DNA from: Flavobacteriales bacterium
Lineage (GTDB): Bacteria > Bacteroidota > Bacteroidia > Flavobacteriales_F > PHOS-HE28
NCBI GenBank assembly: GCA_016705955.1
Contig: JADJKO010000010.1
Coordinates: 6,280-70,279 of the forward strand
Length of the DNA: 64,000 nucleotides
Reading direction: 5' to 3'
Position 1 is the stretch's first letter. Each line of letters opens with the position of its first letter. Of this stretch, positions 8,049 through 24,645 are shown in pieces. The translations under genes and the position numbers were made by a program. The notes under the pieces were generated by a model that did not search any database, was not told the origin of the DNA, and saw nothing but the letters and a program-made list of their open reading frames with translations.

Positions 8049-8483
8049 TCAATTTCCGCTGATGATGTTCGGGCCGGCGGAGGTGGGGTGCATGCTGATG
8101 ACGCTGTCCACGATGTACACGCTCATACCACGCCATGGTAGCGCCCTTACGTACTCCTTGTAATGCAGGTTGAAGTGCATGCCGCTGTTCCCCATCATGG
8201 TCTTCGCGATCTCCGGATCCTCCACCGAGAAAATGAACTCGTTGCTCTGCATGGAACCCTGCGTCCCCTTCAACCCGGTCTGGATGAGTTTGCCTTCGTA
8301 GGTCTTGAAGACCATGCCCTTGTACACCACATAGTTCAACTCGCCCGCTTTGGCGCCTTCCCCGAAGACCCAGAAGTACCGGAAATAGAAGAACACCGCC
8401 CCGAAGACCACCACGAGCAAGAGCGCCCAACGCATCATCTTCCGGAAAACGCTGGTCTTCTTGGGTACCGGTTGGTCGCTCAT
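8049..8483 (-). CDS. Hypothetical membrane-anchored protein
   Basis: 144-aa ORF with a single N-terminal TM helix (WALLLVVVFGAVFFYF); no recognised domain. Confidence 0.4.
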   Translation of the reverse strand: MSDQPVPKKTSVFRKMMRWALLLVVVFGAVFFYFRYFWVFGEGAKAGELNYVVYKGMVFKTYEGKLIQTGLKGTQGSMQSNEFIFSVEDPEIAKTMMGNSGMHFNLHYKEYVRALPWRGMSVYIVDSVISMHPTSAGPNIISGN

Positions 8484-8801
8484 GCCAGCTAAGATAGCGT
8501 CGGCTTTGCCATTCCAATGTGGTTCGTTCCCCCGTTAACATCCGCCGGATGATCAGTGCGTTCGCGGATCCTGATCGGCCGGGATCCGCGATCGGATCAG
8601 CAGTACGCGAGCCAGTGGTCCGCGAAGCGCCCCGATCCGCACGAAGTCGGTGGTGAAAGTGACGACCGTGGGATCATGGTCCATGGCTGAAGAATGTTCA
8701 AGCGAGGATGGGCCGGAGAGCATTGTCGTGAACCGACCGGCTGTTACTCCGCACCCATGGAGTTCTCCGCTGGATCGGATCAGCCAGCGGTTGGATCCCG
8801 C

Positions 8802-9788
8802 TCAGACCTTCTCGAACACCATGCGGTAGTGCTCGAAGATCTCGCGCTCGAACACCTGTAGGTTGGGTGCGATCCGGTAGCGCCGTACCCACTTGCGGAA
8901 GTTGCTATTGAAGAGCTTGGGAAGCAATGTGGCGTAGAGCCCGTACTTCTGGAGATCGAACTTGTTGAAGGCGGCTGTCCATCGGTGGATCGTTTCGATG
9001 TAGTCCAAACGGCCACTGTCGGAGTGGATCAATTTGAAGCGCTCCTTCGCGGGTTCCACCATGCCTTCCTGGCCATAGGGCAGCCACGATCCAGGGAAGA
9101 CATCACAGACGAGGTCCATCAACTCTTCACCGGAGTAGCTCTTCCTGTCCTTCCACACATTCGTCTCGCCGAACTTGATGTCCTCGAACTTCACCATGTT
9201 CGGACCGAACACCATGGTCTGGCAGTAGAAGCGACCTCCCACTGGCAAGAGTTCCGCGACCTGCTTGAAGTACGTGCGGTAGATCTCCTCTTGCTTCCCC
9301 GCACGATATTCCTCCACGGAACAGAGGTGCTCCGGGCTGCCCATTGCGCAGACGGCATCGAAGAGGCCGAAGGTCTCCGGGGTGATGGACTTGCTATCCA
9401 TGTGGTGTACGTTCAATCCGTTCGCACGGCATGCATCGGCCTGGCCCTTCGCCAGCACCACTCCGGTGGTGTGTACACCGCGCTTGTTCAGATAGTCGAT
9501 GAAGGCGCCCCAGCCACATCCGATGTCCAGCACCTTATCGCCGGGTTTGATGCGGCAGTGCTCCATGATGAACGCGTGCTTGCGCTCCTGTGCCTGCTCC
9601 AAGCTCAAGGAGAAGTCGCCATCGAAGCGTGCGCCGCTATACCCGCCCTTCTCGCCCAAGCTCAGGCGGAAGATCTTGTCCATGGTGGTGTAGTGCGCGT
9701 CGAGTTCCTGCTGATCGGCCATGCGAACAAGGTAAGTGTGACCGTACCGCCCCTCGAAGTTGACGTCCTCTTCGGTGGTTCTTATCAC
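8802..9788 (-). CDS. Class I SAM-dependent methyltransferase (cyclopropane-fatty-acyl-phospholipid synthase family)
   Basis: 328-aa ORF; SAM-binding motif VLDIGCGWGAF and overall CMAS-family architecture. Confidence 0.75.
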   Translation of the reverse strand: MIRTTEEDVNFEGRYGHTYLVRMADQQELDAHYTTMDKIFRLSLGEKGGYSGARFDGDFSLSLEQAQERKHAFIMEHCRIKPGDKVLDIGCGWGAFIDYLNKRGVHTTGVVLAKGQADACRANGLNVHHMDSKSITPETFGLFDAVCAMGSPEHLCSVEEYRAGKQEEIYRTYFKQVAELLPVGGRFYCQTMVFGPNMVKFEDIKFGETNVWKDRKSYSGEELMDLVCDVFPGSWLPYGQEGMVEPAKERFKLIHSDSGRLDYIETIHRWTAAFNKFDLQKYGLYATLLPKLFNSNFRKWVRRYRIAPNLQVFEREIFEHYRMVFEKV

Positions 9789-9811
9789 ACTACGAGGTCC
9801 ATCACTTAGTT

Positions 9812-9901
9812 GACCTCTTTCCTAATTCAGTCACGCCCCTTTGCACCTCATCCTTTATCCTTCTCCCAAGGAGAAGGAGTGGATGAATTAGGAAAGAGGT
9901 C
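9812..9901. repeat. Large nested stem-loop (18-bp perfect outer stem, 8-bp inner stem)
   Basis: gacctctttcctaattca (9812-9829) pairs perfectly with tgaattaggaaagaggtc (9884-9901); inner ccttctcc / ggagaagg (9859-9877). Confidence 0.55.
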
Positions 9902-9993
9902 TAGTGTGGGACAAGCCCAGAGCGCGCGGGAGCGGGAGATAAGTTCGGGGGGTGGTGATCCGGAACACCGATCACAGATCCGCGTGAGCGCGA

Positions 9994-10347
9994 TCAAGCA
10001 GCCTTGAAGCGGTCGTTGGCCTCCCGAATGAAGGCTTCCATGTCCTTGGCTGAGAGCCTGCGCGCCAATGCATGGAGATCAGCAACCCCTTTGTCCTTGG
10101 TGAGGAAGGCGAGGTGGTCATTGCCTGCAATGGCAACGGCTTGGGCGGGCCGATAATCGTACAGGTCATGCGGCTCACAGCGGAAGATGCGACAGAGTTT
10201 CTCCAGATCCGAGAAGTGAAGGCGCTTCATGGTACCCGCGATGAGCTTCTTGGCGGTGTGATGCGAGAACCCGTTGCTGGTAAGGAACGAGTACGGACGC
10301 TGAACGCCTTTGAGGCGAGCGATGCGGGGAATGTCGAGGGTGATCAT
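9994..10347 (-). CDS. XRE-family helix-turn-helix transcriptional regulator
   Basis: 117-aa product from an internal Met (MITLDIPRIARLKGV...FSDLEKLCRIFRCEPHDLYDY), a typical Cro/C1-type HTH; the ORF's upstream extension to 10434 is unlikely to be coding. Confidence 0.55.
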   Translation of the reverse strand: MITLDIPRIARLKGVQRPYSFLTSNGFSHHTAKKLIAGTMKRLHFSDLEKLCRIFRCEPHDLYDYRPAQAVAIAGNDHLAFLTKDKGVADLHALARRLSAKDMEAFIREANDRFKAA

Positions 10348-10808
10348 GGCAGGTGCTCGTTGGAATTCAGTGTGTGCGTTGATGTGATCGCGGCTTGGAA
10401 CGTGGATATCCGATCGGAGGTTGCAGAAGATCAATGGGAAGGTGTGCCATGGGGATCTTCGGGTGTAGGAGAACAGGCTTCGGGTGCCCTAGCCGGGATG
10501 GCGGATGCAGGAACCGAACACGGCGGTGTGATGATCAAGGTATCATGCGCCGAACTTGAAGCTTGGGGTGCTGCGATGAACGGACCGGGTGTGGCAATGG
10601 AAGCTTCGGGTGCCTTTTTGAAGATCAGCGGGACGCGGATGACCGCACGCGACCGGTTATGCCCAGGTGCGAATGGTGAAACGCCTACTGGAGTGCAAAA
10701 AGCAGGCGCACGGTTCGCAGATCCGCGTGAGCGGGGGCCCGGCCCCGCGCCGGCCCCGCGCGGCGCCGCGGGCGGGGGGCGCCGGGGGGGCCGGGGGGGC
10801 CGCGGAAC

Positions 10809-10910
10809 GATATAAAGCTCCTGATCATCGAGCATCAAGGCCAAAGCCATGTCTCCTTTCAGCGCGTAGCGGACGATGTTGGTATCGACCAACAACCTAC
10901 TTCCATCCAT
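10809..10910 (-). pseudogene. Truncated PIN-domain (VapC-like) toxin fragment
   Basis: First 34 codons MDGSRLLVDTNIVRYALKGDMALALMLDDQELYI match PIN N-termini (LLVDTNI...); the reading frame then runs into a GC-rich low-complexity tract (10734-10808) encoding PRPPRPPRRPPP; start overlaps the upstream antitoxin stop by 14 nt. Confidence 0.55.
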
Positions 10911-11070
10911 CGCGCATCTTCTTCTGGATGGCCAGCGGATCGCACTCCAACTTCAGCTTACCGGCGAAGCTCTTCACGTCAACGCCCTTCCTCATCCGTG
11001 TTCGCTTCTTGCTCTTCAGCAGCACTGCGAGCTGTTTCCGCGTGGTGGATCGTTTCACGATGATGGTCAT
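10897..11070 (-). CDS. Small VapB-like antitoxin (57 aa; below the ORF-track size cut-off)
   Basis: Hand-translated minus-strand ORF MTIIVKRSTTRKQLAVLLKSKKRTRMRKGVDVKSFAGKLKLECDPLAIQKKMRDGWK; its 3' end overlaps the PIN fragment start (ATGGATGGAAGTAG), the classic TA gene overlap. Confidence 0.5.
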   Translation of the reverse strand: MTIIVKRSTTRKQLAVLLKSKKRTRMRKGVDVKSFAGKLKLECDPLAIQKKMRDGWK

Positions 11071-11098
11071 GCGGCGCGTGGATGAACAAATGTAGCGT

Positions 11099-12082
11099 TC
11101 AATACCCCCCGCCCCCGCCCTGCCCGCGTTCGATCGGGTGCCAGGTGGTTTTCACCTCTTGGGTATCGAGGATCATGTAGGGTGACTGCGCATCGGCGCT
11201 CATCCAGTCCTTCACCTTGGGAACTACCACACGCTTCATGTTCGTAGCAGCTTCGGTGTCGAGCATCGTCTTCTCCTCCTTGTCCTCGGCTCCGCTCGGA
11301 CTGACAGTCGGGGCAACGACGATCGCGTTGATGTCCATGTGCGACACGAGGGGCTTGAGCAATTCGCTGCGGAAGCCGGTGAGCAGGTTCACCACGCCGC
11401 CGGGCAGGTCGCTGGTGGCGAGCACTTCGGCGAAGGTGACGGCGGGTAAGGGATGCTTCTCACTGGCCACTACCACGGCTGTGTTGCCGCCTGTGATCAC
11501 AGGAGCGATCAAGCTCACCAGTTCCAGCAGGCCGTTGCTTCCGCCAGCCATTACGCCCACCACGCCGGTGGGTTCCTCCACGCTGAAGTTGAAGTGCGAA
11601 CTGTTGGTGGGGTTCACGCTGCTGAAGAGTGCTTGGTACTTGTCACACCAGCCGGCGTAGTGTATCCAGCGATCGATCGCTGCACTCACTTCTTCATTCG
11701 CTTGTTGCGCTGTTGATCCGTGTAGTACAAGCTCATGCACGAACTGTGCGCGGCGGCCTTCGAGCATCTCGCCGATGCGGTAGAGGATCTGCCCGCGGTT
11801 GAAGGCGCTGCGGTTGGCCCAATCGCCCAAGGCCTTGCGCGCGGCGATCACGCTCTCGCGGACATCCTTACGACTGCTGCGGCAGATGTTCGCCAGCGCT
11901 TTACCGTCCGTGCCTTTCGGCTGGTAGTAGCGGCCACTCTCCGTGCGCGGGAATTTGCCGCCGATGAAGATCTTGTAGGTCTTCATCACGGGAACGCGCT
12001 CCGCCTTCTTAGCGGTGCCGTTGGTGCCGTGGCCGTTGAGGTCGGCTTTGACAGCGGTCGTCTTCGTGATCGTCTTGCTCAT
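11099..12082 (-). CDS. Aldehyde dehydrogenase-like protein, N-terminal (NAD-binding) half only
   Basis: 327-aa product from an internal Met (MSKTITK...KTYKIFIGGKF...GGNTAVVVASEKHPLPAVTFAEVL...GGVVNLLTG) aligns to the ALDH N-terminal domain but lacks the catalytic Cys/ELGGK region; ends in GQGGGGGY, encoded by a C/G homopolymer tract. Confidence 0.55.
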   Translation of the reverse strand: MSKTITKTTAVKADLNGHGTNGTAKKAERVPVMKTYKIFIGGKFPRTESGRYYQPKGTDGKALANICRSSRKDVRESVIAARKALGDWANRSAFNRGQILYRIGEMLEGRRAQFVHELVLHGSTAQQANEEVSAAIDRWIHYAGWCDKYQALFSSVNPTNSSHFNFSVEEPTGVVGVMAGGSNGLLELVSLIAPVITGGNTAVVVASEKHPLPAVTFAEVLATSDLPGGVVNLLTGFRSELLKPLVSHMDINAIVVAPTVSPSGAEDKEEKTMLDTEAATNMKRVVVPKVKDWMSADAQSPYMILDTQEVKTTWHPIERGQGGGGGY

Positions 12083-12144
12083 TAGTACTGACTGTGCGTA
12101 GCCAAAGCTACGGCCCGGCTGACGAGGATCTATTTGGGACCGGA

Positions 12145-12726
12145 TCAAGCATCCTCCAATCCCTTCCCTTCCAGGATCCGCTCCACGCATTTCTCGATCC
12201 TCGCCTCGCGGGTCTTCGCTTGTTTGGCCGATGAGAAGTGAAGCAGGTAGCCGCGCTGGCGACCCGGTGTCAGCGCGTTGAATGCCTTCTTCAAGGCAGG
12301 TATCGAAGCCAACTTGTTCTTGAACTCTTCGGGCATGTCGAAGGCCGCCGTTGGCTTGAGCTTCACTTCCAGACCGGCCTTTTCCACCTCGATGGCTTCG
12401 TGGGTATACGCCTTCACGATGCGCTCCAGCTTCACGATCTCCTTCAAGTCGGTAAACCGGATCTGGCGCGCGGCCTGCACGTTCTTGGTTTGTTGCACCA
12501 GGATCCCGTGATCGTCCTTGAGCAAGGCGCCCTTGTGGAAGAGCAACGCGCAGTAGTCCTTGAAGGCATGGATCAGCACGACGTTCTTCTTCTTGAGCGT
12601 GTAGCACGGATGGCCCCACTTCATCTCCTCTTCGAGGCCGCAGTCCAGTAGGATCATCCGGAGCTTCTCCTGCTCTTGCTGCCACTTGCCGGCTTTGTTG
12701 AAGTACCAGTCAACGGTGGGGTTCAT
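12145..12726 (-). CDS. YdeI/OmpD-associated family protein (DUF1801)
   Basis: 193-aa ORF with the characteristic MNPTVDWYFNKAGKWQQE... N-terminus of this family. Confidence 0.75.
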   Translation of the reverse strand: MNPTVDWYFNKAGKWQQEQEKLRMILLDCGLEEEMKWGHPCYTLKKKNVVLIHAFKDYCALLFHKGALLKDDHGILVQQTKNVQAARQIRFTDLKEIVKLERIVKAYTHEAIEVEKAGLEVKLKPTAAFDMPEEFKNKLASIPALKKAFNALTPGRQRGYLLHFSSAKQAKTREARIEKCVERILEGKGLEDA

Positions 12727-12803
12727 GCCACGAACTTATGCCGAACCGAACTTTGCGTGATCACAGTTGGCCCACATACCTTGGTCCGACAGATCACGAA
12801 CCC

Positions 12804-13160
12804 ATGTCACGACACGTCACCGGTATCGGCGGATTCTTCTTCCGCTCGGACGATCACAAGGCACTTGCCGCGTGGTACAACAAACACTTCGGCATCAACG
12901 ACCAGGAGAACGGCTGGATCTGGCAACAGGATGCCGGCCCCACGGTGTTCTCGCCGTTCAAGCGCGACACCGACTACTTCGGCAACGACAAGCAGCAGTT
13001 CATGCTGAACCTGCGCGTGCAGGACATGGATGGCCTGCTGAAGAAACTCGAGGCCGACGGTGTGCGCATCGACCCCAAGCGCATGGATGAGGACTACGGC
13101 CGCTTCGCGTGGGTCTTCGATCCGGACGGGAACAAGATCGAATTGTGGGAGCCGAAGTAG
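12804..13160 (+). CDS. VOC family protein (glyoxalase/bleomycin-resistance fold)
   Basis: About 118 aa from an internal Met (MSRHVTGIGGFFFRSDDHKALAAWYNKHFG...IELWEP), the typical VOC beta-alpha-beta-beta-beta motif. Confidence 0.75.
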   Translation: MSRHVTGIGGFFFRSDDHKALAAWYNKHFGINDQENGWIWQQDAGPTVFSPFKRDTDYFGNDKQQFMLNLRVQDMDGLLKKLEADGVRIDPKRMDEDYGRFAWVFDPDGNKIELWEPK

Positions 13161-13277
13161 GTGGGGTCGGAAACCGATGCACTCGAACCTCGCTGGATCT
13201 GAGACCATTCGTGCCGTGAGCATCGATCCCATATTTCGTTCAGCTACGGCTTCTTTACATCACAACTTCGGAGCCTC

Positions 13278-13835
13278 ATGCGCCCCCTTCGCTTCTCCAT
13301 CAACGTCACCTTGGACGGATGCTACGACCATACCGTCGGGCTCGCGGACGAGGACCTGCACCGCAACGCGATGGAGTACATCGCCGGGTGCGACGCCTTG
13401 CTCTTCGGCCGGGTGACCTACGACATGATGTTGGCCGCGTGGCGCATGCCACCGAACGGGATATGGCCGGAGTGGATGCCACCGTGGATGCAGCCGTTCG
13501 CCAAGACCATCGATGCGGCCAGGAAGTACGTGGTGTCGAGCACGCTGAAGGAAGTGGATTGGAACGCGGAACTCGTGCGTGGAGATCTCGAGAAGACCGT
13601 TCAGCAACTCAAGCAGCAACCGGGCAAGGGCATCGGTGTGGGCGGCGTGCAACTCGCGATGGCCTTGACGGAATTGGGCCTGATCGATGAGTACCAGATC
13701 GTGGTACACCCGCGGATCGTGGGTCGCGGGCCAACCTTGTTCGCAGGACTATCGAAGATGGTGGACCTGAAGCTTGTGGGCCGACAGGAGTTCGGCTCGG
13801 GGGCGGTGGCGATGCGGTATGAAGTGAAGCGGTAG
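13278..13835 (+). CDS. Dihydrofolate reductase family protein (RibD C-terminal domain)
   Basis: 185-aa ORF; FSINVTLDG...LLFGRVTY...IVVHPRIVGRG pattern of YwjB/RibD_C proteins. Confidence 0.8.
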   Translation: MRPLRFSINVTLDGCYDHTVGLADEDLHRNAMEYIAGCDALLFGRVTYDMMLAAWRMPPNGIWPEWMPPWMQPFAKTIDAARKYVVSSTLKEVDWNAELVRGDLEKTVQQLKQQPGKGIGVGGVQLAMALTELGLIDEYQIVVHPRIVGRGPTLFAGLSKMVDLKLVGRQEFGSGAVAMRYEVKR

Positions 13836-13910
13836 GTTGACTTCGTCCGGGTCGTATCCATCTCCTTTCCTTTTGCCATTCATCCATCAGCGGCCCTTTA
13901 TCTTTGCAAC

Positions 13911-14213
13911 ATGGAACTTAGCGAGTCTACACGGGAGCAACTGCGCCGCTTCTTCGCGGCGTATCCGGTGGACCGTGCCTACGTCTTTGGGTCATTCGCG
14001 CGTGGTGAGGCCAGGCCGGATAGCGACATGGACATCCTTGTGGACCTGGACCGATCCAAGCCCTTCGGATTGGGCTTTGTGCAAATGCAGCTCGACCTGG
14101 AGGAATTGCTCGGCCGCAAAGTGGACGTGGTGACCCGTAGTGCACTGAGCAAGTACATCGCGCCGTTCGTGACGAAGGACCTACAACTGATCTATGCGCG
14201 AGCGGCGGCGTGA
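13911..14213 (+). CDS. Nucleotidyltransferase antitoxin (MntA-like)
   Basis: 100 aa; GSFARGEARPDSDMDILVD minimal nucleotidyltransferase motif (GS...D.D); overlaps the downstream HepT gene by 20 nt. Confidence 0.8.
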   Translation: MELSESTREQLRRFFAAYPVDRAYVFGSFARGEARPDSDMDILVDLDRSKPFGLGFVQMQLDLEELLGRKVDVVTRSALSKYIAPFVTKDLQLIYARAAA

Positions 14214-14553
14214 CCGACTTCGCTTGCAACATATGCTCGATGCGTGTGATGCCCTGATCGAGTTCATGCGCGGCAAAAACGAGGATGACCTCGTGACGGA
14301 CAAGCTGCTCGTCTCGGGTGTTACACGACAGATCGAGATCATTGGAGAAGCCGCGAACATGCTCACCATCGAGCTACGGAATGAGCACCCCGATGTGCCG
14401 TGGAGACAGATCATTGGTATGCGCAACAACGTCATTCACGAATACTTCGCCGTGCAGACCGAAACCGTGTGGGACGTGGTGACGAACGATGTTCCCGTGC
14501 TGCGGGACCAGCTCGTCGCGATCATCGCCAAGTTGCCGGAAGCCGGTTTCTGA
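14194..14553 (+). CDS. HepT-like (DUF86) RNase toxin
   Basis: 119 aa; R(X)4HEY-type HEPN motif (MRNNVIHEYF); forms an MntA/HepT pair with 13911..14213. Confidence 0.8.
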   Translation: MRERRRDRLRLQHMLDACDALIEFMRGKNEDDLVTDKLLVSGVTRQIEIIGEAANMLTIELRNEHPDVPWRQIIGMRNNVIHEYFAVQTETVWDVVTNDVPVLRDQLVAIIAKLPEAGF

Positions 14554-14558
14554 ATGGC

Positions 14559-14962
14559 TCACGTCCTCAGGATCGACTCCATCTTCTTGCCCTTGGCCAG
14601 TTCATCCACCAACTTATCCAGGTAGCGGATCTGTTGCATCAGCGGGTCCTCGATGTCCTCTACGCGGTAGCCGCAGGACCTGTCCCGTGAAGCGGGATCA
14701 TACCCGTGATCCTGTTGACGTTCGGGTTCAATTCGGGTGCCTTGGCGAAGAAGGTCTCGAAGTCGATCTTCTTGTCGAGCACGTTCTGCAAGCCCTTCTC
14801 CGTGTAGCCCGTGAGCCAGTGGATGACGGTGTGCAGCTCTGCCTTCGTGCGGCCGTCATCCCGGCCACCGAGCCGGGACTTCTCCACCTTGGTAACGTAG
14901 TGCGGGTACACGCTTGCGAAGGCCATGCGATAGACCCTTTCGTTGTTCTCTCCTGGTTTCAT
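14559..14962 (-). pseudogene. DUF2200 family gene with an internal frameshift
   Basis: N-terminal part (MKPGENNERVYRMAFASVYPHYVTKVEK...HWLTGY...[24 protein letters not shown]) is in the frame of ORF 14660..14992; the conserved C-terminus ([37 protein letters not shown]) is in another frame ending at 14559; frame switch near 14676-14700. Confidence 0.6.
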
Positions 14963-14966
14963 GATC

Positions 14967-15260
14967 TTAAAATGGCTTGCCCTTCGGATCACGTTTCACA
15001 TGCCAGATCGAAAGAACATGTATCACGGTGGCATTGTACGAATAGAACATCATGTGATCACCGATGGTCTTTAAGCGCACGTCGGCATCACTTGTGGGTC
15101 GGCCTAGTTTGGGCTGTGCGGCGATCACGCGCAACGCCGCCCGGAACATGCCGTCCAACTTCTCGCTGTATAGGGTGGAACCACTGCGGTCCGCCCAATA
15201 GCGCAGGATCACCAAGCGCTCACGCTGGGCGTTGGCGGACCAGACTATTTGCCGAGCCAT
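14967..15260 (-). CDS. Type II toxin-antitoxin system RelE/ParE family toxin
   Basis: 97 aa; matches the RelE/ParE fold pattern (…RVIAAQPKLGRP…IHVLSIWH…); overlaps the upstream antitoxin gene. Confidence 0.75.
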   Translation of the reverse strand: MARQIVWSANAQRERLVILRYWADRSGSTLYSEKLDGMFRAALRVIAAQPKLGRPTSDADVRLKTIGDHMMFYSYNATVIHVLSIWHVKRDPKGKPF

Positions 15261-15481
15261 TCATCCACGGCCTTGTTCGCGTCGCGTTCGGAAAGCGTGC
15301 GGCCCGCCTTGATATCCTTCTTACCCCTGTTGACGGAAGTCTGCTGCTCCTTTGTGAGCTTGTATGGCTCCAAGCCCGCAGCATCGGTGCCCATCAGCCG
15401 GTATGCCTCACGCAGCAACGCGCTATCGCGAGATCGCATGATGCGGTTGATCAGTCGCTTCTTGAGTTCCACTTCGGACAT
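15245..15481 (-). CDS. Putative antitoxin (addiction module component)
   Basis: 78-aa product from an internal Met (MSEVELKKRLINRIMRSRDSALLREAYRLM...); 16-nt overlap with the RelE/ParE toxin gene. Confidence 0.55.
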   Translation of the reverse strand: MSEVELKKRLINRIMRSRDSALLREAYRLMGTDAAGLEPYKLTKEQQTSVNRGKKDIKAGRTLSERDANKAVDEWLGK

Positions 15482-15646
15482 GGGACGCGGTTTGGTCTTG
15501 CTAAGGTATGGCGAGCGCGAAACCTTTCCCTCTGGTGCATTGCTGCGAACGCACCACTGGTCCGTGAGCCTGTTAGATGATGGCATCGTCCTGCTGGCCG
15601 TCCATCCGGTGCTGTTGGGTACGGGCAAGCGCCGCACACATTCGAG

Positions 15647-15728
15647 CTCATCAGCACGAAGGCATTCCCATCCGGCAGCATCTTCAATGCCTGCAAGGTC
15701 GCCGGGGCTTAAAAGGCGGGGTAGTTCG
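15647..15728. repeat. 82-bp direct repeat, copy 1 (about 88% identical to 17512-17593)
   Basis: ctcatcagcacgaaggcattcccatccggcaGcatcttcaatGcctGcaaggtcgCCggggcttAAaaggcggggtagttcg versus copy 2; the two copies bracket the ImmA/IrrE-DUF4411 cassette. Confidence 0.8.
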
Positions 15729-15734
15729 AGGATG

Positions 15735-16238
15735 CTACAGAGTACAGGTGAACTTGATACCCAACTCCTCGATCATCTTGAAGTCATCGATGCACCGAAC
15801 ACCCATTGCGTCACAGACATGCGGGATCTTCACTCGCTTGTTGTTCGCGGCTGTCGGTTTCTCCTCCTTGGACACGACGCAAGCGTTCTCGGCCATAGCA
15901 TGGGCGATCAGCCATGGATCCGCAAGTGATCGCTGCTTCGTGTTGTCCACAAGCAGCTGGTGCTTCGGGTCCTTCGCATAGATCTCTTTCAACTTGATGC
16001 CGACTTCCTCTGTAACACTCCGAACCTTGACGCGACTTTTCTTCAACCATTTCGACAAGTCGTCGTCGGTGCGATGGATCTCCTCGGCTACCCAACTCGG
16101 AACGAATAACTGACCGTGAGCGCCAAGCTCATCCAGGACATTCCAATAGGTAGGGCAAACGTTCGGTGAGTAGTAGCTCTCCCATGCTTTGATGAGCACG
16201 TTCGCATCGAGGCAGTATATGGTCGACTGCAAGCTCAT
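15735..16238 (-). CDS. DUF4411 family protein (PIN-like nuclease fold)
   Basis: 167 aa; MSLQSTIYCLDANVLIKAW...LVPSWVAEEI motif characteristic of DUF4411, usually found downstream of ImmA/IrrE genes; 4-nt overlap with the upstream gene. Confidence 0.8.
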   Translation of the reverse strand: MSLQSTIYCLDANVLIKAWESYYSPNVCPTYWNVLDELGAHGQLFVPSWVAEEIHRTDDDLSKWLKKSRVKVRSVTEEVGIKLKEIYAKDPKHQLLVDNTKQRSLADPWLIAHAMAENACVVSKEEKPTAANNKRVKIPHVCDAMGVRCIDDFKMIEELGIKFTCTL

Positions 16239-17416
16239 CGGTACATGATGGCCTCGAACTTCGAGAAGTTGTTCACCGGCGTGTTGAGCAGGCTACTCGC
16301 CAATGTGGGTTGGATCACACCTCCGCGAAAGGCATCCAGAACGACCTGGGTGAAGAGTCGCCCATTCTTGTTCAAGCGAAGCAGATAGGGATCCGGGCCG
16401 CCCTTGGACCGCTCCTTCTCCTTGTTCTTCTCCGACAATGCACGCAGGTATTCCTTGAAGTCCTTGTCCAAGGTCGCCTTCATGGAATGGTAGCCCGCGT
16501 CGGTGACGAGACCACGACCATGAGCGCGCACTAGCAAAGCCCACGAACTCACACCGGATCTCTCAGAGATCTGAGCGATCGATCTGGGATCCGAGAATTG
16601 AGAAGCGGTCAATGACGCCATCACCCGATCCGGCATCAGCGCATGAGCCGCAACCGCATTGCAGAAACGTTCGATGGGATCGGCGTTAGTAACGTTCGTT
16701 ACCTCTGGCTCGATCTCGCTTGAGATCCCGGTAGCCGCGATCCAGATATGTGCCAACTCATGCACTAGCGTGAACAGCTGCGCTTTGTCCCAATCCTCGG
16801 TATTGATGAAGACGAAAGGAGCGTGCGGGTCAGCGATGGCAAAGCCTTGGAACTCATCGCTGTCCAGTTTCAACCGTGTGTGAATGAAGCTCGTACGTGA
16901 AATGAAAATACCTGCGGCCTCCGCCTTGGTCATCCATTCGCGGATCGGCTCCTTCTCCTGGTAGGCTTCGGGATCAATGCCCAGCGTATAGAGGATGTCC
17001 TGCGCCACGGCGCTAGATTCATCGTTCGCCGTGTAGCGGCCAACGAACGGCAGGGCCGGTTCTTCGTTCTCGCGCTGCAATTCACTTATCCAACTATGCT
17101 TCTGTTGGATATCCCGAAGTATGAAGACCGCCGCAGTTGTCAACTCCTTGGAGCCGGAGCGACGGAAGTCGTTAAGCGGCGTGAAGTCATACGGAACATC
17201 AGGCAGGAACAGCATGGCGAACGGCCTGCGGTAAGCCTTCGCAAGCGTCTCCGCCTGTCTGATGGTCGGCTGTTCGGTTCCTTCCTCCCATTTAGCCAAA
17301 CGCTCAGGTGTAAGCCTCGTGACTTTCTTGGCCGCTTGCTCAAGAGTGAGGCGCGCTGTTTCGCGCGCCCACTTCAAGACCTTAGGAGTTATGTAGGCTT
17401 TCTCTGCCACTGGCAA
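16235..17416 (-). CDS. XRE-HTH / ImmA-IrrE family zinc metallopeptidase fusion
   Basis: 393 aa; N-terminal HTH (LKWARETARLTLEQAAKKV) and HEXXH zinc motif (LVHELAHIW) typical of ImmA/IrrE proteases. Confidence 0.85.
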   Translation of the reverse strand: MPVAEKAYITPKVLKWARETARLTLEQAAKKVTRLTPERLAKWEEGTEQPTIRQAETLAKAYRRPFAMLFLPDVPYDFTPLNDFRRSGSKELTTAAVFILRDIQQKHSWISELQRENEEPALPFVGRYTANDESSAVAQDILYTLGIDPEAYQEKEPIREWMTKAEAAGIFISRTSFIHTRLKLDSDEFQGFAIADPHAPFVFINTEDWDKAQLFTLVHELAHIWIAATGISSEIEPEVTNVTNADPIERFCNAVAAHALMPDRVMASLTASQFSDPRSIAQISERSGVSSWALLVRAHGRGLVTDAGYHSMKATLDKDFKEYLRALSEKNKEKERSKGGPDPYLLRLNKNGRLFTQVVLDAFRGGVIQPTLASSLLNTPVNNFSKFEAIMYR

Positions 17417-17511
17417 GGGAGCAAGGTGCTTCGCTACTGAACTAGATCGACGGGTTTCTTGGCTAGATTTTCGACAGCAAGGTATGATCGTCTTCTGAAC
17501 CGTTGTCGAGA

Positions 17512-17593
17512 CTCATCAGCACGAAGGCATTCCCATCCGGCATCATCTTCAATACCTACAAGGTCGTTGGGGCTTTGAAGGCGGGGTAGTTCG
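17512..17593. repeat. 82-bp direct repeat, copy 2
   Basis: See copy 1; lies just upstream (on the minus strand) of the ImmA/IrrE gene. Confidence 0.8.
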
Positions 17594-17696
17594 GCGAGTG
17601 GATTGGCAGTGAATACCGGAGCTCCGGACGGAAGAACCTTGCGTTGTACTTTGCGACTGCCGGTCCTGCACCCCTAACCGGACCTCAAAACAAGAA

Positions 17697-18143
17697 ATGT
17701 CTGTCGTGTTCTGCCTTGTCAAAGTCGCGTGTGCTTGGTTGGCAATGATGTTTATCGGAACCAACCTACTGGGCTTCATCGTGCGAGGCTTCTTGGAACA
17801 GGTGGTCCCGGCCGAACCTCCCGATGACGGCAGAGCCGTGAACACCTGGATCGCTCGTGAGCGCAAGAGGATGAAAGCGTCCAATCTCGTGATGACAGCA
17901 TTGGCCATTGGTGCCTGCGCTGGCTATTACTGGGCGCTCTTCCACTACCTCGGAGGTGCGCTTGCCGTGACCGCAGGAGCCATGCTTATGGTATCTCGGC
18001 TACCTGACCTGTTAGTCGAAATCAGGACCGGGAAGCCTACGACACGTAGATCCATGTCACAAACCCCACTCGACTTCTTCATGACGGCCCTGATTTGGGC
18101 GGCTCTACCAGTGATGTGGTTCGCCTTGTGTTATCAGAAATAA
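17697..18143 (+). CDS. Hypothetical membrane protein
   Basis: 148-aa ORF with 4 hydrophobic helices; no recognised domain. Confidence 0.4.
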   Translation: MSVVFCLVKVACAWLAMMFIGTNLLGFIVRGFLEQVVPAEPPDDGRAVNTWIARERKRMKASNLVMTALAIGACAGYYWALFHYLGGALAVTAGAMLMVSRLPDLLVEIRTGKPTTRRSMSQTPLDFFMTALIWAALPVMWFALCYQK

Positions 18144-18229
18144 GCGACCGGGATTGGATGCTGGCGTCTATTGCGTGGTGCTCTCCCGTCGGAGAAATCA
18201 GCCGTGATGCTGACTGATTGATGCGCGAT

Positions 18230-18790
18230 TCAAGTCCAGGGCACCTTAACAGATCGTTCTCGACTTTGAACTAGCACGTTCAGCGTGGGGTGAATACGGT
18301 CGTACAAACCCTTGAATACATCAGGCCATTTCCCTCCTAGTTGGATGGATGTGACTTGCAAATCATGAGACTTCGGAACTGGATAGCGAAATTCTGTCTC
18401 CATCATCCGTTGGACTTGATCACAGAAAATGTCTTCGTTCTGACTAAGGGAGATTTTCGCCATACGGGCCAACTTCTTCAACTGGTGCGTTTGAATCTTT
18501 CGTGCTAAGGCACCATTCGAAATGAGCGTTTTATCCTCGAGGATAATCTTGCCCTTGAACAGACATTCAACGCTGTAACCAAGCAGCGCACCGTAAATGT
18601 GAAGCGTAGAAACCATTGAGCGCGTATCGTCGGTTGCCTCTCCCCGAACACGCTTCATTAAATCCTCCAGCTGCCGTTCGCATTCTGGCCAAAGCAACTT
18701 TGCGGCATGGCGGAGATCGGAAGCTTTGCGTCCCCAGAAGTAAGGGCTGGCTTCCATTCTGAAATACTGATGCTCCTTTGGTTCAGGCAT
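18230..18790 (-). CDS. Hypothetical protein (island-encoded)
   Basis: About 186 aa from an internal Met (MPEPKEHQYFRMEASPYFWGR...); no recognised family. Confidence 0.4.
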   Translation of the reverse strand: MPEPKEHQYFRMEASPYFWGRKASDLRHAAKLLWPECERQLEDLMKRVRGEATDDTRSMVSTLHIYGALLGYSVECLFKGKIILEDKTLISNGALARKIQTHQLKKLARMAKISLSQNEDIFCDQVQRMMETEFRYPVPKSHDLQVTSIQLGGKWPDVFKGLYDRIHPTLNVLVQSRERSVKVPWT

Positions 18791-18932
18791 TTCGCGTGAG
18801 CGATTGAAGCGGAAACCCCGCAAGCCCGGTAATCCGGGCGCGGAGTTGCAGCGGAAAGCGCGACCCGGCTGCATTTGAGCCGGGGCACGCCCACATCTCG
18901 ACTACGCTCGATGTGACAACGCTCCGCATCCC

Positions 18933-20396
18933 TCAATTCAAATTCAAGTACGCGCTCAAGCCGTGCACGCCACCCTCTCTTCCATACCCACTTTCCTTGT
19001 AGCCGCCGAAGGGTGAGGTGGGATCGAACTTGTTGAAGGTGTTGGCCCAGATGACGCCCGCGCGCAATTTGCTGGTGAGGTTGAAGATCTTGGAGCCTTT
19101 GTCCGTCCACACGCCGGCGCTGAGGCCGTAGGGCGTGTTGTTGGCCTTCTGGATCACTTCGTCCACGGTGCGGAAGGTCTGCACGGCGAGCACGGGGCCG
19201 AAGATCTCTTCCTGTGAGATGCGCGCGCTTTGGGCTACGTTGGTGAAGAGCGTGGGGCGGCACCAGAAGCCTTTGCCGGGCAGGTCGCACGCGGGTTGGA
19301 ACATCTCCGCGCCGTCGGCTTGGCCGATCTTGAGGTACTTGTTGATGGTGCCGAGTTGCTCGCGGCTGTTGATGGCGCCGATGTCGGTGTTCTTGTCGAG
19401 CGGATCGCCCACGACGAGCGAGCGCATGCGGTGCTTGAGCTTGCGGATCACTTCGTCGTACACGCCTTCTTCCACGAAGAGGCGGCTGCCGGCGCAGCAC
19501 ACGTGGCCCTGGTTGAAGTAGATGCCGTTGATGATGCCTTCGACGGCCTGGTCGATGGCGGCGTCGGCGAAGATGATGTTGGCCGCTTTGCCGCCGAGTT
19601 CGAGGGTGAGCTTCTTACCTGATCCCGCCGTGGCGCGCTGGATGAGCTTGCCCACATTGGTGCTGCCGGTGAAGGCGACCTTGTTGACATCGGGATGGTT
19701 GACGACCGCCGCGCCCGTGGCACCCGCACCGGTGACGATGTTGACGACGCCATCGGGGAGCTCGGCTTCCTGCAGAAGTTCGGCGAGCTTGAGTGCGGTG
19801 AGCGGTGTGGTCTCGGCGGGTTTCAGCACCACGGTGTTACCGCAGGCGAGGGCGGGCGCGAGTTTCCACGCGGCCATGAGCAGCGGGAAGTTCCACGGGA
19901 TCACTTGACCGGCAACGCCCAGCGGTGTCGGGTTCTTTCCCGGGAAGGCGTAGTTGAGCTTGTCCGCCCAACCGGCGTAGTAGAAGAAGTGCGCGGCGGC
20001 GAGCGGCACGTCCACGTCGCGGCTTTCGCGGATGGCCTTGCCGCCGTCCATGCTTTCGATGACGGCGAACTCGCGGGCCTTTTCCTGCAACAAGCGCGCG
20101 ATGCGGTAGATGTACTTGGCGCGTTCGCTCGCGGGCATCTTACCCCAGTGCCCTTTGTATGCCTTGCGCGCGGCCTTCACGGCGGCGTCCACATCGGCGT
20201 CATTGGCCTCGGCGATGCGCGCGAGCTTCTGCTCATTGGCCGGGTTGATGGTGTCGAAGTACTTGCCGCTCTTCGGTTTCTGCCACTTGCCGTTGATGAA
20301 GAGCTCGTACTGGGGGGAGATCTTGACGTGGTCCTTGGACTCGGGGGCGGGGGCGAGGGTCCAGTCGAGGGGTTTCTTCTTGGTCTTGGTGGCCAT
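18933..20396 (-). CDS. Aldehyde dehydrogenase family protein (NAD(P)+-dependent)
   Basis: 487 aa; full ALDH motifs: VIPWNFPL, GNTVVLKPAE, ELGGKA, catalytic-Cys region NQGHVCCAGSR. Confidence 0.9.
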   Translation of the reverse strand: MATKTKKKPLDWTLAPAPESKDHVKISPQYELFINGKWQKPKSGKYFDTINPANEQKLARIAEANDADVDAAVKAARKAYKGHWGKMPASERAKYIYRIARLLQEKAREFAVIESMDGGKAIRESRDVDVPLAAAHFFYYAGWADKLNYAFPGKNPTPLGVAGQVIPWNFPLLMAAWKLAPALACGNTVVLKPAETTPLTALKLAELLQEAELPDGVVNIVTGAGATGAAVVNHPDVNKVAFTGSTNVGKLIQRATAGSGKKLTLELGGKAANIIFADAAIDQAVEGIINGIYFNQGHVCCAGSRLFVEEGVYDEVIRKLKHRMRSLVVGDPLDKNTDIGAINSREQLGTINKYLKIGQADGAEMFQPACDLPGKGFWCRPTLFTNVAQSARISQEEIFGPVLAVQTFRTVDEVIQKANNTPYGLSAGVWTDKGSKIFNLTSKLRAGVIWANTFNKFDPTSPFGGYKESGYGREGGVHGLSAYLNLN

Positions 20397-20473
20397 GGTT
20401 TGTTCGTCGTAGCTGAGTGAGCGAAGGCGCAGCGACGAAGATAGCCCCGGCCTTGCTGTAACTTGGCGGCACC

Positions 20474-20737
20474 ATGGGACGCCTCATCATCGACATTCAC
20501 GATCCGAAGAAGGAGAAGGAGGTGGCCGAGATCCTGCTGGGCATCGACGGCGTGGTGGTCGAGCGGGCCATGGCCATCCCGAAGAGATCCGCAAAGGGGA
20601 AGAAGGTCGCCCGGAAACTTACTCCTGGGGAGAAACGGTTCGTGAGCGAACTGAGGCAGGCATTGAAGGAATTGAACGACCACATCACGGGCAAGAAGAA
20701 ATTCCAGTCGGCCCGCGCGTTCCTGCATGAGCTATAG
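20474..20737 (+). CDS. Putative antitoxin of a RelE/ParE pair
   Basis: 87-aa ORF whose 3' end overlaps (11 nt) the ATG of the downstream RelE-like gene. Confidence 0.5.
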   Translation: MGRLIIDIHDPKKEKEVAEILLGIDGVVVERAMAIPKRSAKGKKVARKLTPGEKRFVSELRQALKELNDHITGKKKFQSARAFLHEL

Positions 20738-21078
20738 GGTCGGTGTTTCGCCAACCTTCAAGAAGAAGGCGAAGCGGTTGGTGAAGATGTTTCATCCCGC
20801 TTAGCGGGAAGTATGCCTCCCTGAAGGGGGAACTACTGGAGCTGATCGGCCTGCTGGAACAGGACCCCGAACAAGGCACTCCGATCGGCAAGCGATGCTT
20901 CAAGGTGCGACTTTCGATCAAGTCCAAAGGTGGCGGAAAGTCCGGTGGTGCGCGGGTGATCACATGCGTGCTGCATGTTGCCAAGGAAGTTCACCTGCTG
21001 ACGATCTACGACAAATCGGAACAAGGCACGGTCACGGCCAGTGAGCTTGACACGTTATTGAAGGAGGTCCCACGTTGA
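20727..21078 (+). pseudogene. RelE/ParE family toxin gene with a +1 frameshift
   Basis: N-terminus MSYRVGVSPTFKKKAKRLVK in frame 0 stops at 20802; the conserved core SLKGELLELIGLL...KVRLSIKSKGGGKSGGARVITCVLHVAKEVHLLTIYDKSEQGTVTASELDTLLKEV continues in frame +1 to 21078. Confidence 0.6.
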
Positions 21079-21116
21079 TCATTGACCGAGACCAACATCG
21101 TTCAATTGGCCGAACA

Positions 21117-21389
21117 ATGCCCATCCGCCCCAACCCCTTCGCCTCGGTGACCTGGCGCACCACGTCGGGTGCCACCGAAGCGACACCTTCGGACGATGAC
21201 TTCGTTGCCGGGACGGAGGACGGTTACCTGCTGCGCGTGGAGAAGATGGACCGCAAGAAGTGGTGGTGGCAGGTGTACGGTCCGGATCGCAAGGAGGTCA
21301 TCGATTCACCGTGGATGATGAACACGATGGAGGACGCGTTCACGATCGCGGAGACGGTGTACGAGGTCCATCGCCGGGCAAGCCGTTGA
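21117..21389 (+). CDS. Hypothetical protein
   Basis: About 90 aa from an internal Met (MPIRPNPFASVTW...); no recognised domain. Confidence 0.35.
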   Translation: MPIRPNPFASVTWRTTSGATEATPSDDDFVAGTEDGYLLRVEKMDRKKWWWQVYGPDRKEVIDSPWMMNTMEDAFTIAETVYEVHRRASR

Positions 21390-21973
21390 TACCATCGCAA
21401 CATCTGTCGCGGTCCTTCGGCGATCACATGCTGATGTGAACGGCCCTTCGGACGTGCAGACGAAGGCTCCTCTTGCTCCCGGGCGCTCGCACGAGTTGCC
21501 GGTCGATCCTTCTGATCCTGGCCGCTGTTCAGGGTCCATTGGATCCAACGCTCTTCAACTCGTCGTGGTCGTCTGATGACAGGTCCCTCATCCCCCTCTT
21601 TCCGACCGGCTGAGCGGTGTAATGGGAAAATAATCCGTTCGGGACCCTGTGAAAAATACGTGGTCGCTTAGGGTGAAAAGACCGGTATTGCGGATCATCC
21701 GCTCGCGCCAACTTGCCCCCATGGATCTGACAGGCCATAGCGCACCGCCGAGGTTACCCCGCCAGAACGAGGAACCACCCTCCTCCAAGGGCGGGAAGTG
21801 GACCATGGTGCTTTGGTGGATCGGACTCCTCGTCTTCCTGATCGGGCTCTTGGGAATACATACGTACATGAACCCTCAATAAAGGGGTAGCAGGACGTAC
21901 TTGAGCGATACGACCTCCTCCTGATCCGGGCCCGGAAGCTAGCAATGGCGGCCGGGTCCGCCTTTTCAGGGGG

Positions 21974-22831
21974 TCAATCAATGCTGAAGTAATCCGCGCT
22001 CTGGTAGTGCCCATCGGCCTCCTTCTGCAACTGCATCAGGATGTCGTTGGCGAGGCTGCTGGCGCCGAAGCGGAACCAGTGGTTGCTGAGCCACTCGGGG
22101 CCGAGCTCCTCCTTCACCATCATGAGATAGTGTAGCGCCTGCTTGCTCGTGCGAATGCCACCTGCGGGCTTCATGGCGATCATCTCGCCGGTCTTCAGGT
22201 AGTGATCACGGATGGCGTGCAACATCACTAGCGTCACTTCCATCGTTGCAGCTGGATTGATCTTGCCGGTGCTGGTCTTGATGAAATCGGCGCCTGCCGC
22301 AATGGCGATATCGCTCGCTAGGCGCACTTTATCGTACGTACCGAGTTCGCCGGTCTCGAGGATCACTTTCAAACGCGCTTCACCGCAGGCTTCCTTGATC
22401 GCAGCGATCTCGTCGAACACGAAGTTGTATTCACCGCTGTGGAAATGCCCGCGGCTGATGACCATGTCGATCTCGTCGGCGCCTTGGCTCACGGCGTATT
22501 TGGTGTCCGCGATCTTCACGCTCTTCGGTGCTTGTCCGCTTGGGAAGGCGGTTGATACCGACGCGACCTTCACGCCACTATCGCCCAATGCCTTCCTCGC
22601 GACTTTCACCATGGTCGGGTAAACACAAATGGCAGCGACGGTCGGTAGACCCGGAAGGCTGTCGTGCAAGTGCATGCCTTTGTAGCAGAGCTGCTTCACT
22701 TTGCTGGGTGTGTCGGCGCCCTCCAACGTGGTGAGGTCGATCATGCTCAGGGCCATTTTCATGCCCTGCACCTTTGTTTCCTTCTTGATGCTGCGCGCCT
22801 TGATGCGGGCCACGCGCTCCTCGATACCCAC
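21974..22831 (-). CDS. deoC: Deoxyribose-phosphate aldolase
   Basis: 285 aa; LSMIDLTTLEG, AAICVYP, active-site Lys context FIKTSTGK and GASSLAN tail align to DeoC. Confidence 0.85.
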   Translation of the reverse strand: MGIEERVARIKARSIKKETKVQGMKMALSMIDLTTLEGADTPSKVKQLCYKGMHLHDSLPGLPTVAAICVYPTMVKVARKALGDSGVKVASVSTAFPSGQAPKSVKIADTKYAVSQGADEIDMVISRGHFHSGEYNFVFDEIAAIKEACGEARLKVILETGELGTYDKVRLASDIAIAAGADFIKTSTGKINPAATMEVTLVMLHAIRDHYLKTGEMIAMKPAGGIRTSKQALHYLMMVKEELGPEWLSNHWFRFGASSLANDILMQLQKEADGHYQSADYFSID

Positions 22832-23604: not shown

Positions 23605-23615
23605 TCAAATGCATT

Positions 23616-23706: not shown

Positions 23707-23721
23707 AAAAAGAACCGACCC

Positions 23722-24627: not shown

Positions 24628-24645
24628 GCACACGCTCACCCGCCG

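Follow-up and report, generated by a model that had tools for sequence, protein, structure and literature searches.

How do toxin-antitoxin modules that carry no mobility genes come to be packed together on a bacterial chromosome? The question is raised by a 64-kb Flavobacteriales stretch (contig JADJKO010000010.1; hereafter the window, whose coordinates are used throughout unless a related locus is named), in which five toxin-antitoxin-type modules, two of them already dead (PIN and RelE), lie within 11.6 kb. Open reading frames (ORFs) were taken from six-frame translation and assigned by profile searches; in the other 52 kb of the window, by-eye inspection and a partial Pfam search recognised no toxin-antitoxin module. 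Our reading, to which we give a probability of roughly 0.7, is that the region is a long-lived hotspot, where small cassettes, mostly two-gene toxin-antitoxin pairs, inserted serially at the spacers of an operon of deoC and two aldehyde dehydrogenase genes (Ald1 and Ald2) and at the small genes resident there.

The ruler for what was inserted is the operon itself, since the trio is contiguous in most of 80 genomes. We scanned for Ald1 with one genome per species and mapped the window proteins onto the resulting loci (L001-L080, from Bacteroidota, Planctomycetota, Verrucomicrobiota, Myxococcota, Actinomycetota and others). Across many phyla Ald1 is 69-80% identical, with deoC upstream and Ald2 downstream: deoC is immediately upstream of Ald1 in 65 of the 80 genomes (largest gap 876 bp), and Ald2 immediately downstream in 70 (largest gap 1327 bp). 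The same gaps in the window measure 1577 and 6847 bp, respectively. Because the trio is adjacent nearly everywhere else, the toxin-antitoxin genes of the window must be placed in at least three positions, namely the deoC-Ald1 gap, the Ald1-Ald2 gap and the sequence downstream of Ald2. The region is therefore several insertions into one operon, interleaved with lineage-conserved small genes (YdeI, VOC, RibD_C and DUF2200), and not a single island. The first-pass annotation had described one accessory island, rich in toxin-antitoxin modules, between ordinary metabolic genes; its accessory and toxin-antitoxin-rich character stands, but its unity does not. Nor is the full-length aldehyde dehydrogenase that it counted among the island genes cargo: this is Ald1, a core gene. 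All the genes that it did list are present where it put them, although it passed over Ald2, YdeI, VOC, RibD_C, a decayed RibD_C tail and a 104-aa ORF. Four of these omitted genes (Ald2, YdeI, VOC and RibD_C) fill about 2.7 kb (11099-13835) that is neither toxin-antitoxin nor defence and is common to relatives; YdeI, VOC and RibD_C are matched by orthologues in L081, L082 and L084 (76-91% at the amino-acid level), and L095 shows DNA-level matches (85% and 79%).

The closest relative found, GCA_016721005.1 (L081), came up through homologues of Ald2, which placed the lineage in a clade of Flavobacteriales metagenome-assembled genomes. Over 8.3 kb of the left flank its nucleotide identity to the window is 93%, and protein identity there is 95-99%; the two loci have a scaffold in common (79-93% at the nucleotide level) comprising the methyltransferase, the XRE regulator, VapB, the PIN N-terminus, Ald2, YdeI and VOC, together with the DUF2200 pseudogene, two 82-bp repeats and the Ald1 C-terminus. 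What lies in the slots of this scaffold differs. The slot holding RibD_C and the MntA-HepT pair in the window is taken by a RelE pair in L081; that of ParE is about 1 kb without a called gene; between the same two repeats stands an ImmA-DUF4411 pair with an ImmA of only 26% identity; and a different gene, a hydrophobic 170-aa ORF that we guess to encode a membrane protein, replaces two window genes without a family match. L081 also carries an extra DUF4357 gene. The locus was thus checked for conservation as core genome, and it is accessory, since different modules occupy the same slots. In L081 the conserved operon is being destroyed, not merely split: a Wadjet system (JetA/JetB/JetC-like; L081 1-2386 and 2926-3930) abuts Ald1, which is truncated at residue 165.

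More distant relatives (L082, L084, L094 and L095) have the same semi-conserved small genes and other cargo, including Fic, HEPN_AbiV, DUF433-DUF5615, KilA-N, ParE and DUF4160-DUF2442. A defence hotspot is recognised by different defence or toxin-antitoxin cargo, between conserved genes, at the same locus in related genomes, and this is what L081, L082, L084, L086, L088, L094 and L095 present. The first-pass wording 'defence-type' fits these relatives, which carry JetABC/Wadjet, HEPN_AbiV and Fic, but only weakly the window itself, where PADLOC returned a candidate-family match (PDC-S09) and RmrA-like matches without RmrT.

These comparisons bear on the idea, also raised in the first pass, that the region is the remnant of one integrated element, that is, a decayed prophage, integrative and conjugative element (ICE) or genomic island that lost its mobility genes and left its addiction modules. 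In its favour, the ends of prophages and ICEs typically carry toxin-antitoxin modules and an XRE-ImmA regulator, matches to ImmA and DUF4411 exist among phage protein families, and decayed genes are frequent here. Yet the modules alternate with core operon genes (Ald1 and Ald2) and lineage-conserved small genes, the slots vary independently between relatives, and several distinct local repeat pairs indicate separate events. Within the window we found no ORF resembling an integrase, transposase or recombinase (by-eye inspection and partial Pfam search), no tRNA, and no repeats bracketing the whole 11.6-kb region, which together make a single-element remnant unlikely; on all the evidence we consider it very improbable.

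Even less credit is due to the view that the locus is ordinary conserved genome, or that its repeats and frameshifts arose in the assembly of a metagenome bin. The window does evidently come from a metagenome-assembled genome, and a 66-bp insert made of G and C only is missing from another assembly of the same species. However, two independent assemblies reproduce the arrangement, including both 82-bp repeats and the DUF2200 lesion: L087 (Ga0138256) matches 13581-19145 at 99.93%, and L093 (GCA_020853935.1), from the same species, matches 8163-19150 at 99.5-99.8%. The repeats are moreover 76-96% identical with indels, not exact k-mer duplicates, and the content differs from that of the closest relative. 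We give this view next to no probability.

The clearest single event is the arrival of the MntA-HepT pair. In L095 the 3' ends of RibD_C and DUF2200 face each other, their stop codons 2 nt apart, and the DUF2200 tail is single-copy. The window has two copies of the final ~54 bp of DUF2200, one by the RibD_C stop codon and one on DUF2200 itself; they form a 51-bp repeat of 76% identity (outer copy 13840-13889, inner copy 14561-14611), and the 671-bp MntA-HepT unit lies between the two DUF2200 tails. This pair of empty and filled sites proves that MntA-HepT is an insertion with a target duplication of about 54 bp, through which the DUF2200 reading frame, although interrupted, still ends in a complete tail. 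The same tail was used elsewhere, L094 having a 63-bp duplication of it around a different small gene. DUF2200 itself is broken by a 20-nt insertion, and a separate 21-nt insertion is in frame; the frameshifting one is shared with L081 and is therefore old. Both mini-insertions (in 14555-14970) are GC-rich, the 21-nt one being a hairpin (CCCGGCTCGGTGGCCGGG) and the 20-nt one, common with L081, reading CCCGCTTCACGGGACAGGTC; the L081 gene (L081 7770-8190) has an extra 21-nt insertion 45 nt further on, nearly the reverse complement of the 20-nt one.

Going by its family, HepT would be an RNase that MntA keeps inactive; in the type VII mechanism, MntA adenylylates a HepT tyrosine. The window pair resembles known type VII systems, as far as its sequence tells, in having a minimal nucleotidyltransferase with the motif GSx10DxD (the MntA translation reads GSFARGEARPDSDMDILV), a HEPN protein with Rx4HxY (RNNVIHEY in HepT), and the antitoxin gene first, overlapping the toxin gene by 20 nt. 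It is unlike them in having arrived as a 671-bp insertion into the DUF2200 tail.

The closest precedent for such a footprint comes from restriction-modification units, whose insertion with long target duplication was described by Furuta, Abe and Kobayashi (2010, PMC2853133), citing their group's earlier Helicobacter pylori genome comparison. There, selfish addiction-type gene units are flanked by repeats that vary in length above 30 bp and occur once in empty-site relatives, and no other mobile element is involved. As we take their definition, the insert consists of the selfish unit only, is shorter than 20 kb and free of mobility genes, and the flanking repeat exceeds 30 bp and is single in the empty-site genome; the MntA-HepT insertion has all three of these properties. 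Likeness extends to the genome context, since some of the published repeats also overlap the 3' end of a neighbouring gene. Unlike the published units, the cargo here consists of type II toxin-antitoxin pairs and not of restriction-modification genes, the insertions are packed in one locus and return to the same gene ends across related genomes, one target tail has multiplied into an array, and the repeats are mostly old (76-91%), the published ones being nearly identical. For toxin-antitoxin cassettes flanked by gene-end duplications our literature search returned nothing direct, only this restriction-modification precedent.

The second repeat-bracketed cassette is ImmA-DUF4411, whose enclosure in 82-bp direct repeats was noted in the first pass and is upheld. 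The two copies (R1 and R2) are 91% identical over 82 nt (blastn, 88 nt, E 1.5e-28), and shuffled sequences gave no such match. Between them lie 1783 bp (15729-17511) with no other gene inside, an insert content that agrees with the definition of PMC2853133; the repeat measures 82-88 bp, and no empty site was found. The two genes overlap by 4 nt, and the ImmA translation has HELAH as its HExxH motif. Read on the + strand, the repeat encodes ...LISTKAFPSGIIFNTYKVVGALKAG followed by a stop codon; longer copies in L086 and L088 read LAVYPVLLGTGKRFFANGTPPRSFELISTRAFPSGIIFNTYKVV..., the C-terminus of RibD_C, a protein of the dihydrofolate-reductase family, and hits to the fragment carry PF01872. About 54 bp following R2 (17594-17647) are conserved in L081, L088 and L089.

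A scan of metagenomes with the repeat core gave four loci, one of them the same strain as the window. The three others have two or three RibD_C-tail copies that separate different cassettes: KilA-N and DUF433-DUF5615 in L086, antitoxin-RelE in L088, and a divergent ImmA in L089. Twelve aligned copies share their right part, through the stop codon and mostly ~30 nt beyond, and differ in where they start on the left. With their stops, frameshifts and lack of codon-position bias, these tails are orphan fragments, and the two around ImmA-DUF4411 are what is left of a RibD_C gene since lost.

An array of cassettes between copies of a conserved repeat might suggest an integron, specifically a cluster of attC sites without its integrase, and the cargo is indeed like that of chromosomal integrons (toxin-antitoxin pairs, VOC/glyoxalase, DHFR-family and DUF genes). 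Other cassettes of the locus, though, use unrelated repeats, genes lie on both strands, and by-eye inspection with a partial Pfam search showed no IntI-like gene in the window. When the 82-bp repeat was assessed as an attC site it was rejected: it forms no attC-like hairpin on either strand (z-scores of +0.5 to -1.2 relative to shuffles) and reads as a RibD_C tail. We find an integron hardly credible.

We also considered whether the RibD_C tail is a widespread mobile element. A search with 55 aa of it returned 87 proteins from several phyla, all of 36-96 aa and none a full-length RibD_C, which may reflect the search word index or a real tendency of the family to be truncated. In L090-L092, from other phyla, the RibD_C genes are ordinary ones, truncated or frameshifted, that stand among small genes of the detoxification type without toxin-antitoxin arrays, and the idea was dropped. 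In L090 (7638-8222) a 115-aa ORF is directly followed by a 73-aa RibD_C fragment, and some fragments seem to be frameshifted or truncated genes.

Repeats at cassette borders recur throughout the related loci, with lengths of 86, 74 and 52 bp in L081, 158 bp in L082, 54 and 37 bp in L084, 146, 63 and 39 bp in L094, and 145 and 119 bp in L095, and several cassettes stand between direct repeats of 37-160 bp that duplicate the end of the neighbouring gene. The VapB-PIN pair of L081 has the true Ald2 tail on one side and a 74-bp orphan copy of it on the other, and the DUF4160-DUF2442 pair downstream of Ald2 in L084 has a 37-bp orphan copy beyond it. The window has only one other local direct repeat outside the region. 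Third-codon-position GC is lower in the cassettes (0.68-0.74) than in core genes (0.78-0.88).

The same repeats suggest the most serious alternative, which is site-specific integration. A tyrosine or serine recombinase encoded elsewhere, or by a helper, might insert integrase-less cassettes into gene ends, in the manner of satellites or cis-mobilizable elements (CIMEs), so that the repeats are scars of the attL/attR type; each cassette would bring a surrogate gene end, and tandem accretion at one attachment (att) site would build the RibD_C-tail array. Different cassettes use the same targets repeatedly, as such a mechanism predicts: L081 and L084 have insertions at the Ald2 tail, the window and L094 at the DUF2200 tail, and the window and four other loci at the RibD_C tail. 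Cassettes alternating with one repeat also resemble accretion at a single att site. The cassette-side repeat is also the more diverged (R1 and its L081 counterpart Rb are ~83-86% identical, and the resident-side R2 and Ra are identical over 75 nt), which would follow if the cassettes had each carried in a copy. Against this, no recombinase was recognised in the window or by the cassettes in 20-kb related loci, the inner borders of the repeats vary from 35 to ~170 bp with no common crossover point, at least four unrelated targets would call for several specificities, and the repeat is absent from the viral contigs that we scanned. We judge site-specific integration unlikely, though well ahead of a decayed single element.

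The preferred reading, serial insertion of small cassettes, is as follows. In this lineage of high-GC Flavobacteriales, cassettes entered, one at a time, the operon spacers, the site downstream of Ald2 and positions beside YdeI, VOC, RibD_C and DUF2200, probably through insertion with long target duplication and so without an element-encoded recombinase. Existing repeats would then permit homologous recombination, by which cassettes may be swapped, excised and re-inserted among relatives; the 26%-identical ImmA-DUF4411 allele between conserved repeats in L081 may be there because of recombination between them. Modules would persist by addiction, the toxin being stable and the antitoxin labile, and may confer phage protection of the abortive-infection type; toxins would decay first (the PIN deletion, the RelE frameshift), with antitoxins kept.

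Several observations weigh against this reading. All the relatives compared are metagenome assemblies, and an empty site is demonstrated for one cassette only, MntA-HepT, whose repeat is short, 76% identical and by itself marginal (E 0.005-0.08); none was found for ImmA-DUF4411. Neither the RelE insertion in the deoC-Ald1 gap nor the ParE pair has flanking repeats at E<0.01. Variable columns of the RibD_C tails fall on the three codon positions 14/14/13, so that the tails evolve free of coding constraint; copies taken from different functional donor genes would have shown a third-position bias, but its absence has no bearing on where the tails came from. No complete known system was found in the window by PADLOC. 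A recombinase supplied in trans would account for the repeats, as att scars, equally well.

A bolder version, which we hold to be doubtful, is that the RibD_C, DUF2200 and Ald2 tails are portable docking sites for toxin-antitoxin cassettes that need no element-encoded recombinase. If so, the locus would be an integron-like platform working on host recombination and long target duplication, with cassettes inserted, excised as circles and swapped among related Flavobacteriales, and the selfish-insertion route of restriction-modification units would be general to toxin-antitoxin modules.

Features of the region and its flanks are collected in Table 1.

Table 1. Features of the hotspot and its flanks, in window order
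Feature	Position	Strand	Evidence or remark
CMAS-type methyltransferase	8802-9788	-	Left flank
Orphan XRE/HTH_26 regulator	9994-10434	-	PF13443, E 4.8e-9; 95% identical to L081 gene
G/C-only insert, 66 bp, partly palindromic	10738-10803	.	Absent from same-species assembly L093
VapC/PIN toxin stub	~10806-10910	-	35 codons, then unrelated sequence; 94% identical to N-terminus of L081 orthologue
VapB-like antitoxin, 57 aa, intact	10897-11070	-	98% identical to gene upstream of PIN in L081
Ald2, aldehyde-dehydrogenase-like, 328 aa, third trio gene	11099-12085	-	PF00171, E 2.8e-32
YdeI/DUF1801	12145-12726	-	Pfam
VOC/glyoxalase	12738-13160	+	Pfam
RibD_C	13278-13835	+	Pfam
Orphan DUF2200 tail (last ~17 codons), outer duplication copy	13840-13889	-	Adjoins RibD_C stop codon
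MntA nucleotidyltransferase antitoxin, intact	13911-14213	+	PF01909, E 3.2e-17; also PF18765
HepT HEPN toxin, intact	14194-14553	+	PF01934, E 5.9e-25, profile 1-119/120
DUF2200 pseudogene	14561-14962 (gene ~14570-14962)	-	PF09966 after conceptual repair, 1-111/111, E 5e-47
ParE toxin, intact	14967-15260	-	PF05016, E 3.6e-8, profile 1-89/89
ParE upstream partner, 78 aa, intact	15245-15481	-	Overlaps ParE by 16 nt
Decayed 3' part of second RibD_C-family gene	15540-15728	+	Reads ...HPVLLGTGKR / ELISTKAFPSGSIFNACKVAGA, then stop
Repeat copy R1, last 82 bp of decayed RibD_C tail	15647-15728	+	Direct-repeat search
DUF4411 PIN-like nuclease, intact	15735-16238	-	PF14367, E 4.6e-44
Fused XRE-ImmA/IrrE, intact	16235-17416	-	PF01381 (HTH_3) and PF06114 (Peptidase_M78)
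Repeat copy R2, orphan RibD_C tail	17512-17593	+	Direct-repeat search
148-aa ORF with hydrophobic stretches, guessed membrane protein	17697-18143	+	No family match
186-aa helical protein	18230-18790	-	No family match; directly after Ald1 in three lineages (contexts of L094 and L095)
Flavo-1 RNA motif	18789-18869	+	RF01705, 42.8 bits, gathering score 42
Ald1, full-length aldehyde dehydrogenase, middle trio gene	18933-20396	-	PF00171, E 9e-162
Antitoxin, 87 aa	20474-20737	+	ORF map
RelE-like toxin gene, frameshifted near 20800	~20727-21078	+	PF06296, below cut-off
ORF of 104 aa	21075-21389	+	ORF map
deoC, first trio gene, right-hand hotspot boundary	21974-22831	-	Trio mapping
cysC, cysD	from 22999	+	Right of deoC

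Profile hidden Markov models (HMMs) confirmed most of the first-pass family calls (HTH_26, MntA, HepT, ParE, DUF4411, XRE-ImmA/IrrE and the frameshifted DUF2200); the PIN stub and RelE could be assigned through intact homologues only. Its claim of decayed toxins holds, with PIN and RelE broken and their antitoxins kept. At the left end, the XRE/HTH_26 gene likely starts at 10347 (117 aa). L081 has 52-bp direct repeats of 96% identity (L081 12503-12554 and 13290-13341) on either side of this gene and the sequence upstream of it, and remnants of this repeat are found in the window at 9966-9990 and 10709-10733. Next to these, the window lacks 1.28 kb present in L081 (the rest of PIN, the orphan Ald2 tail and the DUF4357 gene), and the 66-bp G/C-only insert sits exactly at that junction; L093 has a clean junction there, and the insert could be a strain polymorphism, repair filler or an assembly artefact. 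The 35 amino acids left of PIN, too short for an HMM match, gave none, and the window therefore has no intact PIN-domain toxin of the kind that defines VapBC. The L081 orthologue, whose continuation was called as PIN (PF01850), has an in-frame stop at codon 31. The lesions thus differ, a deletion in the window and a stop codon in L081, so the toxin was lost independently in two lineages and the antitoxin retained in both. The 57-aa VapB-like gene found no match in the profile HMM searches.

ParE belongs to the RelE/ParE fold of toxins. Here it follows a small overlapping gene in the antitoxin position, the arrangement by which ParDE/RelE-ParE pairs are recognised; this 78-aa partner had no match in the profile HMM searches, and the equivalent slot in L095 holds Unstab_antitox and ParE. 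In the deoC-Ald1 gap, 20474-21389 is an insertion comprising an antitoxin, the RelE-like toxin gene and the 104-aa ORF. After repair of its frameshift, the RelE-like protein scores 19.2 bits (E 1.4e-3) with PF06296, for which the cut-off is 27; intact homologues in L081 and L088 (59-67% identity) match this family, the L088 one, at 59%, with 37.3 bits. The gene also matches PHROG phrog_5869 (E 4e-12).

The two genes at 17697-18790 have only nine homologue clusters, an AlphaFold2 (AF2) model with a predicted local distance difference test (pLDDT) score of 69 and no PDB match, and no flanking repeats at E<0.01. The Flavo-1 motif, flanked by the start of the 186-aa gene and the stop codon of Ald1, is the only Rfam match at gathering score in the window; L081, L086, L094 and L095 have none at that score. 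The function of Flavo-1 is unknown in the literature (PMC9723704).

Ald2 matches PF00171 at profile positions 15-210 of 461 only, which is the N-terminal cofactor-binding half. Judged from its sequence, this protein of ~320 aa appears to be without a catalytic half, though it is kept after a full aldehyde dehydrogenase and deoC across phyla.

Elsewhere in the window, a 670-aa ORF (61651-63663, + strand) with DUF7380 and DUF4209 stands just after rimP in the part of lowest GC (0.54-0.56), and may be another accessory gene, possibly defence-related. Imperfect inverted repeats occur in intergenic positions at 9812-9901, 23614-23708 (the cysC-cysD spacer), 24645-24705 and 38111-38175, with arms of up to 32 nt that are 88-91% complementary where reported and one motif reading CACAGAGGCACAGAGG; these may be terminators or a dispersed palindromic element.

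Among known systems, ImmA-DUF4411 comes nearest to a predicted three-component toxin-antitoxin system of HTH-DUF955 (ImmA/IrrE, COG2856) and DUF4411 (Matelska et al. 2017, PMC5499597). As in DUF4411.1 outside Actinobacteria, a fused HTH-zinc-peptidase gene is directly upstream of the DUF4411 PIN-like gene, the system being a prediction from sequence in both cases; unlike what is described there, the window pair is bracketed by repeats and a 26%-identical ImmA allele occupies the same site in L081. Both proteins have PHROGs matches (phrog_2439, 3e-53, and phrog_11126, 5e-42), homologues of DUF4411 were found on 49 plasmids, and a scan of viral contigs with the 82-bp repeat was empty. The XRE-ImmA protein also matches many PADLOC models of RmrA (best E 1.1e-17), a likeness to RosmerTA (RmrT/RmrA), but its DUF4411 partner has no RmrT or other PADLOC match at E<=0.01, and the pair is not a member by the PADLOC definition. 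The PADLOC match of MntA to PDC-S09 has an E-value of 7e-26.

In minimal mobile elements, the sequence between two conserved genes differs by whole-gene cassettes, which homologous recombination exchanges. The locus is like these and like defence islands and hotspots in its conserved flanks and scaffold, its strain-specific cassettes and its freedom from mobility genes, and like defence islands in that recognised systems (Wadjet, AbiV and Fic) occur at the same place in relatives. It differs from both in that its flanks are genes of one cross-phylum operon, separated by the insertions, and from minimal mobile elements in that many slots carry duplication scars, which simple allelic exchange does not produce. 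The gene families are known or uncharacterised, with no sign of a new kind of system or of a new family of demonstrated function, and roles of the modules in toxicity, neutralisation and phage defence are predicted from what is known of their families. Apart from the insertion footprint, the locus is an ordinary accessory hotspot.

The usual fate of a module is visible here, in that the toxin dies first, through different lesions in sister lineages, and the antitoxin is kept. How chromosomal toxin-antitoxin modules without mobility genes move is a long-standing question, for which this locus is a compact case that can be followed across genomes. Its footprint ties the spread of toxin-antitoxin modules to the 'insertion with long target duplication' route of restriction-modification units. 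The duplication scars and the array of cassettes separated by repeats are the most useful part of it, for through them the mode of toxin-antitoxin spread becomes testable.

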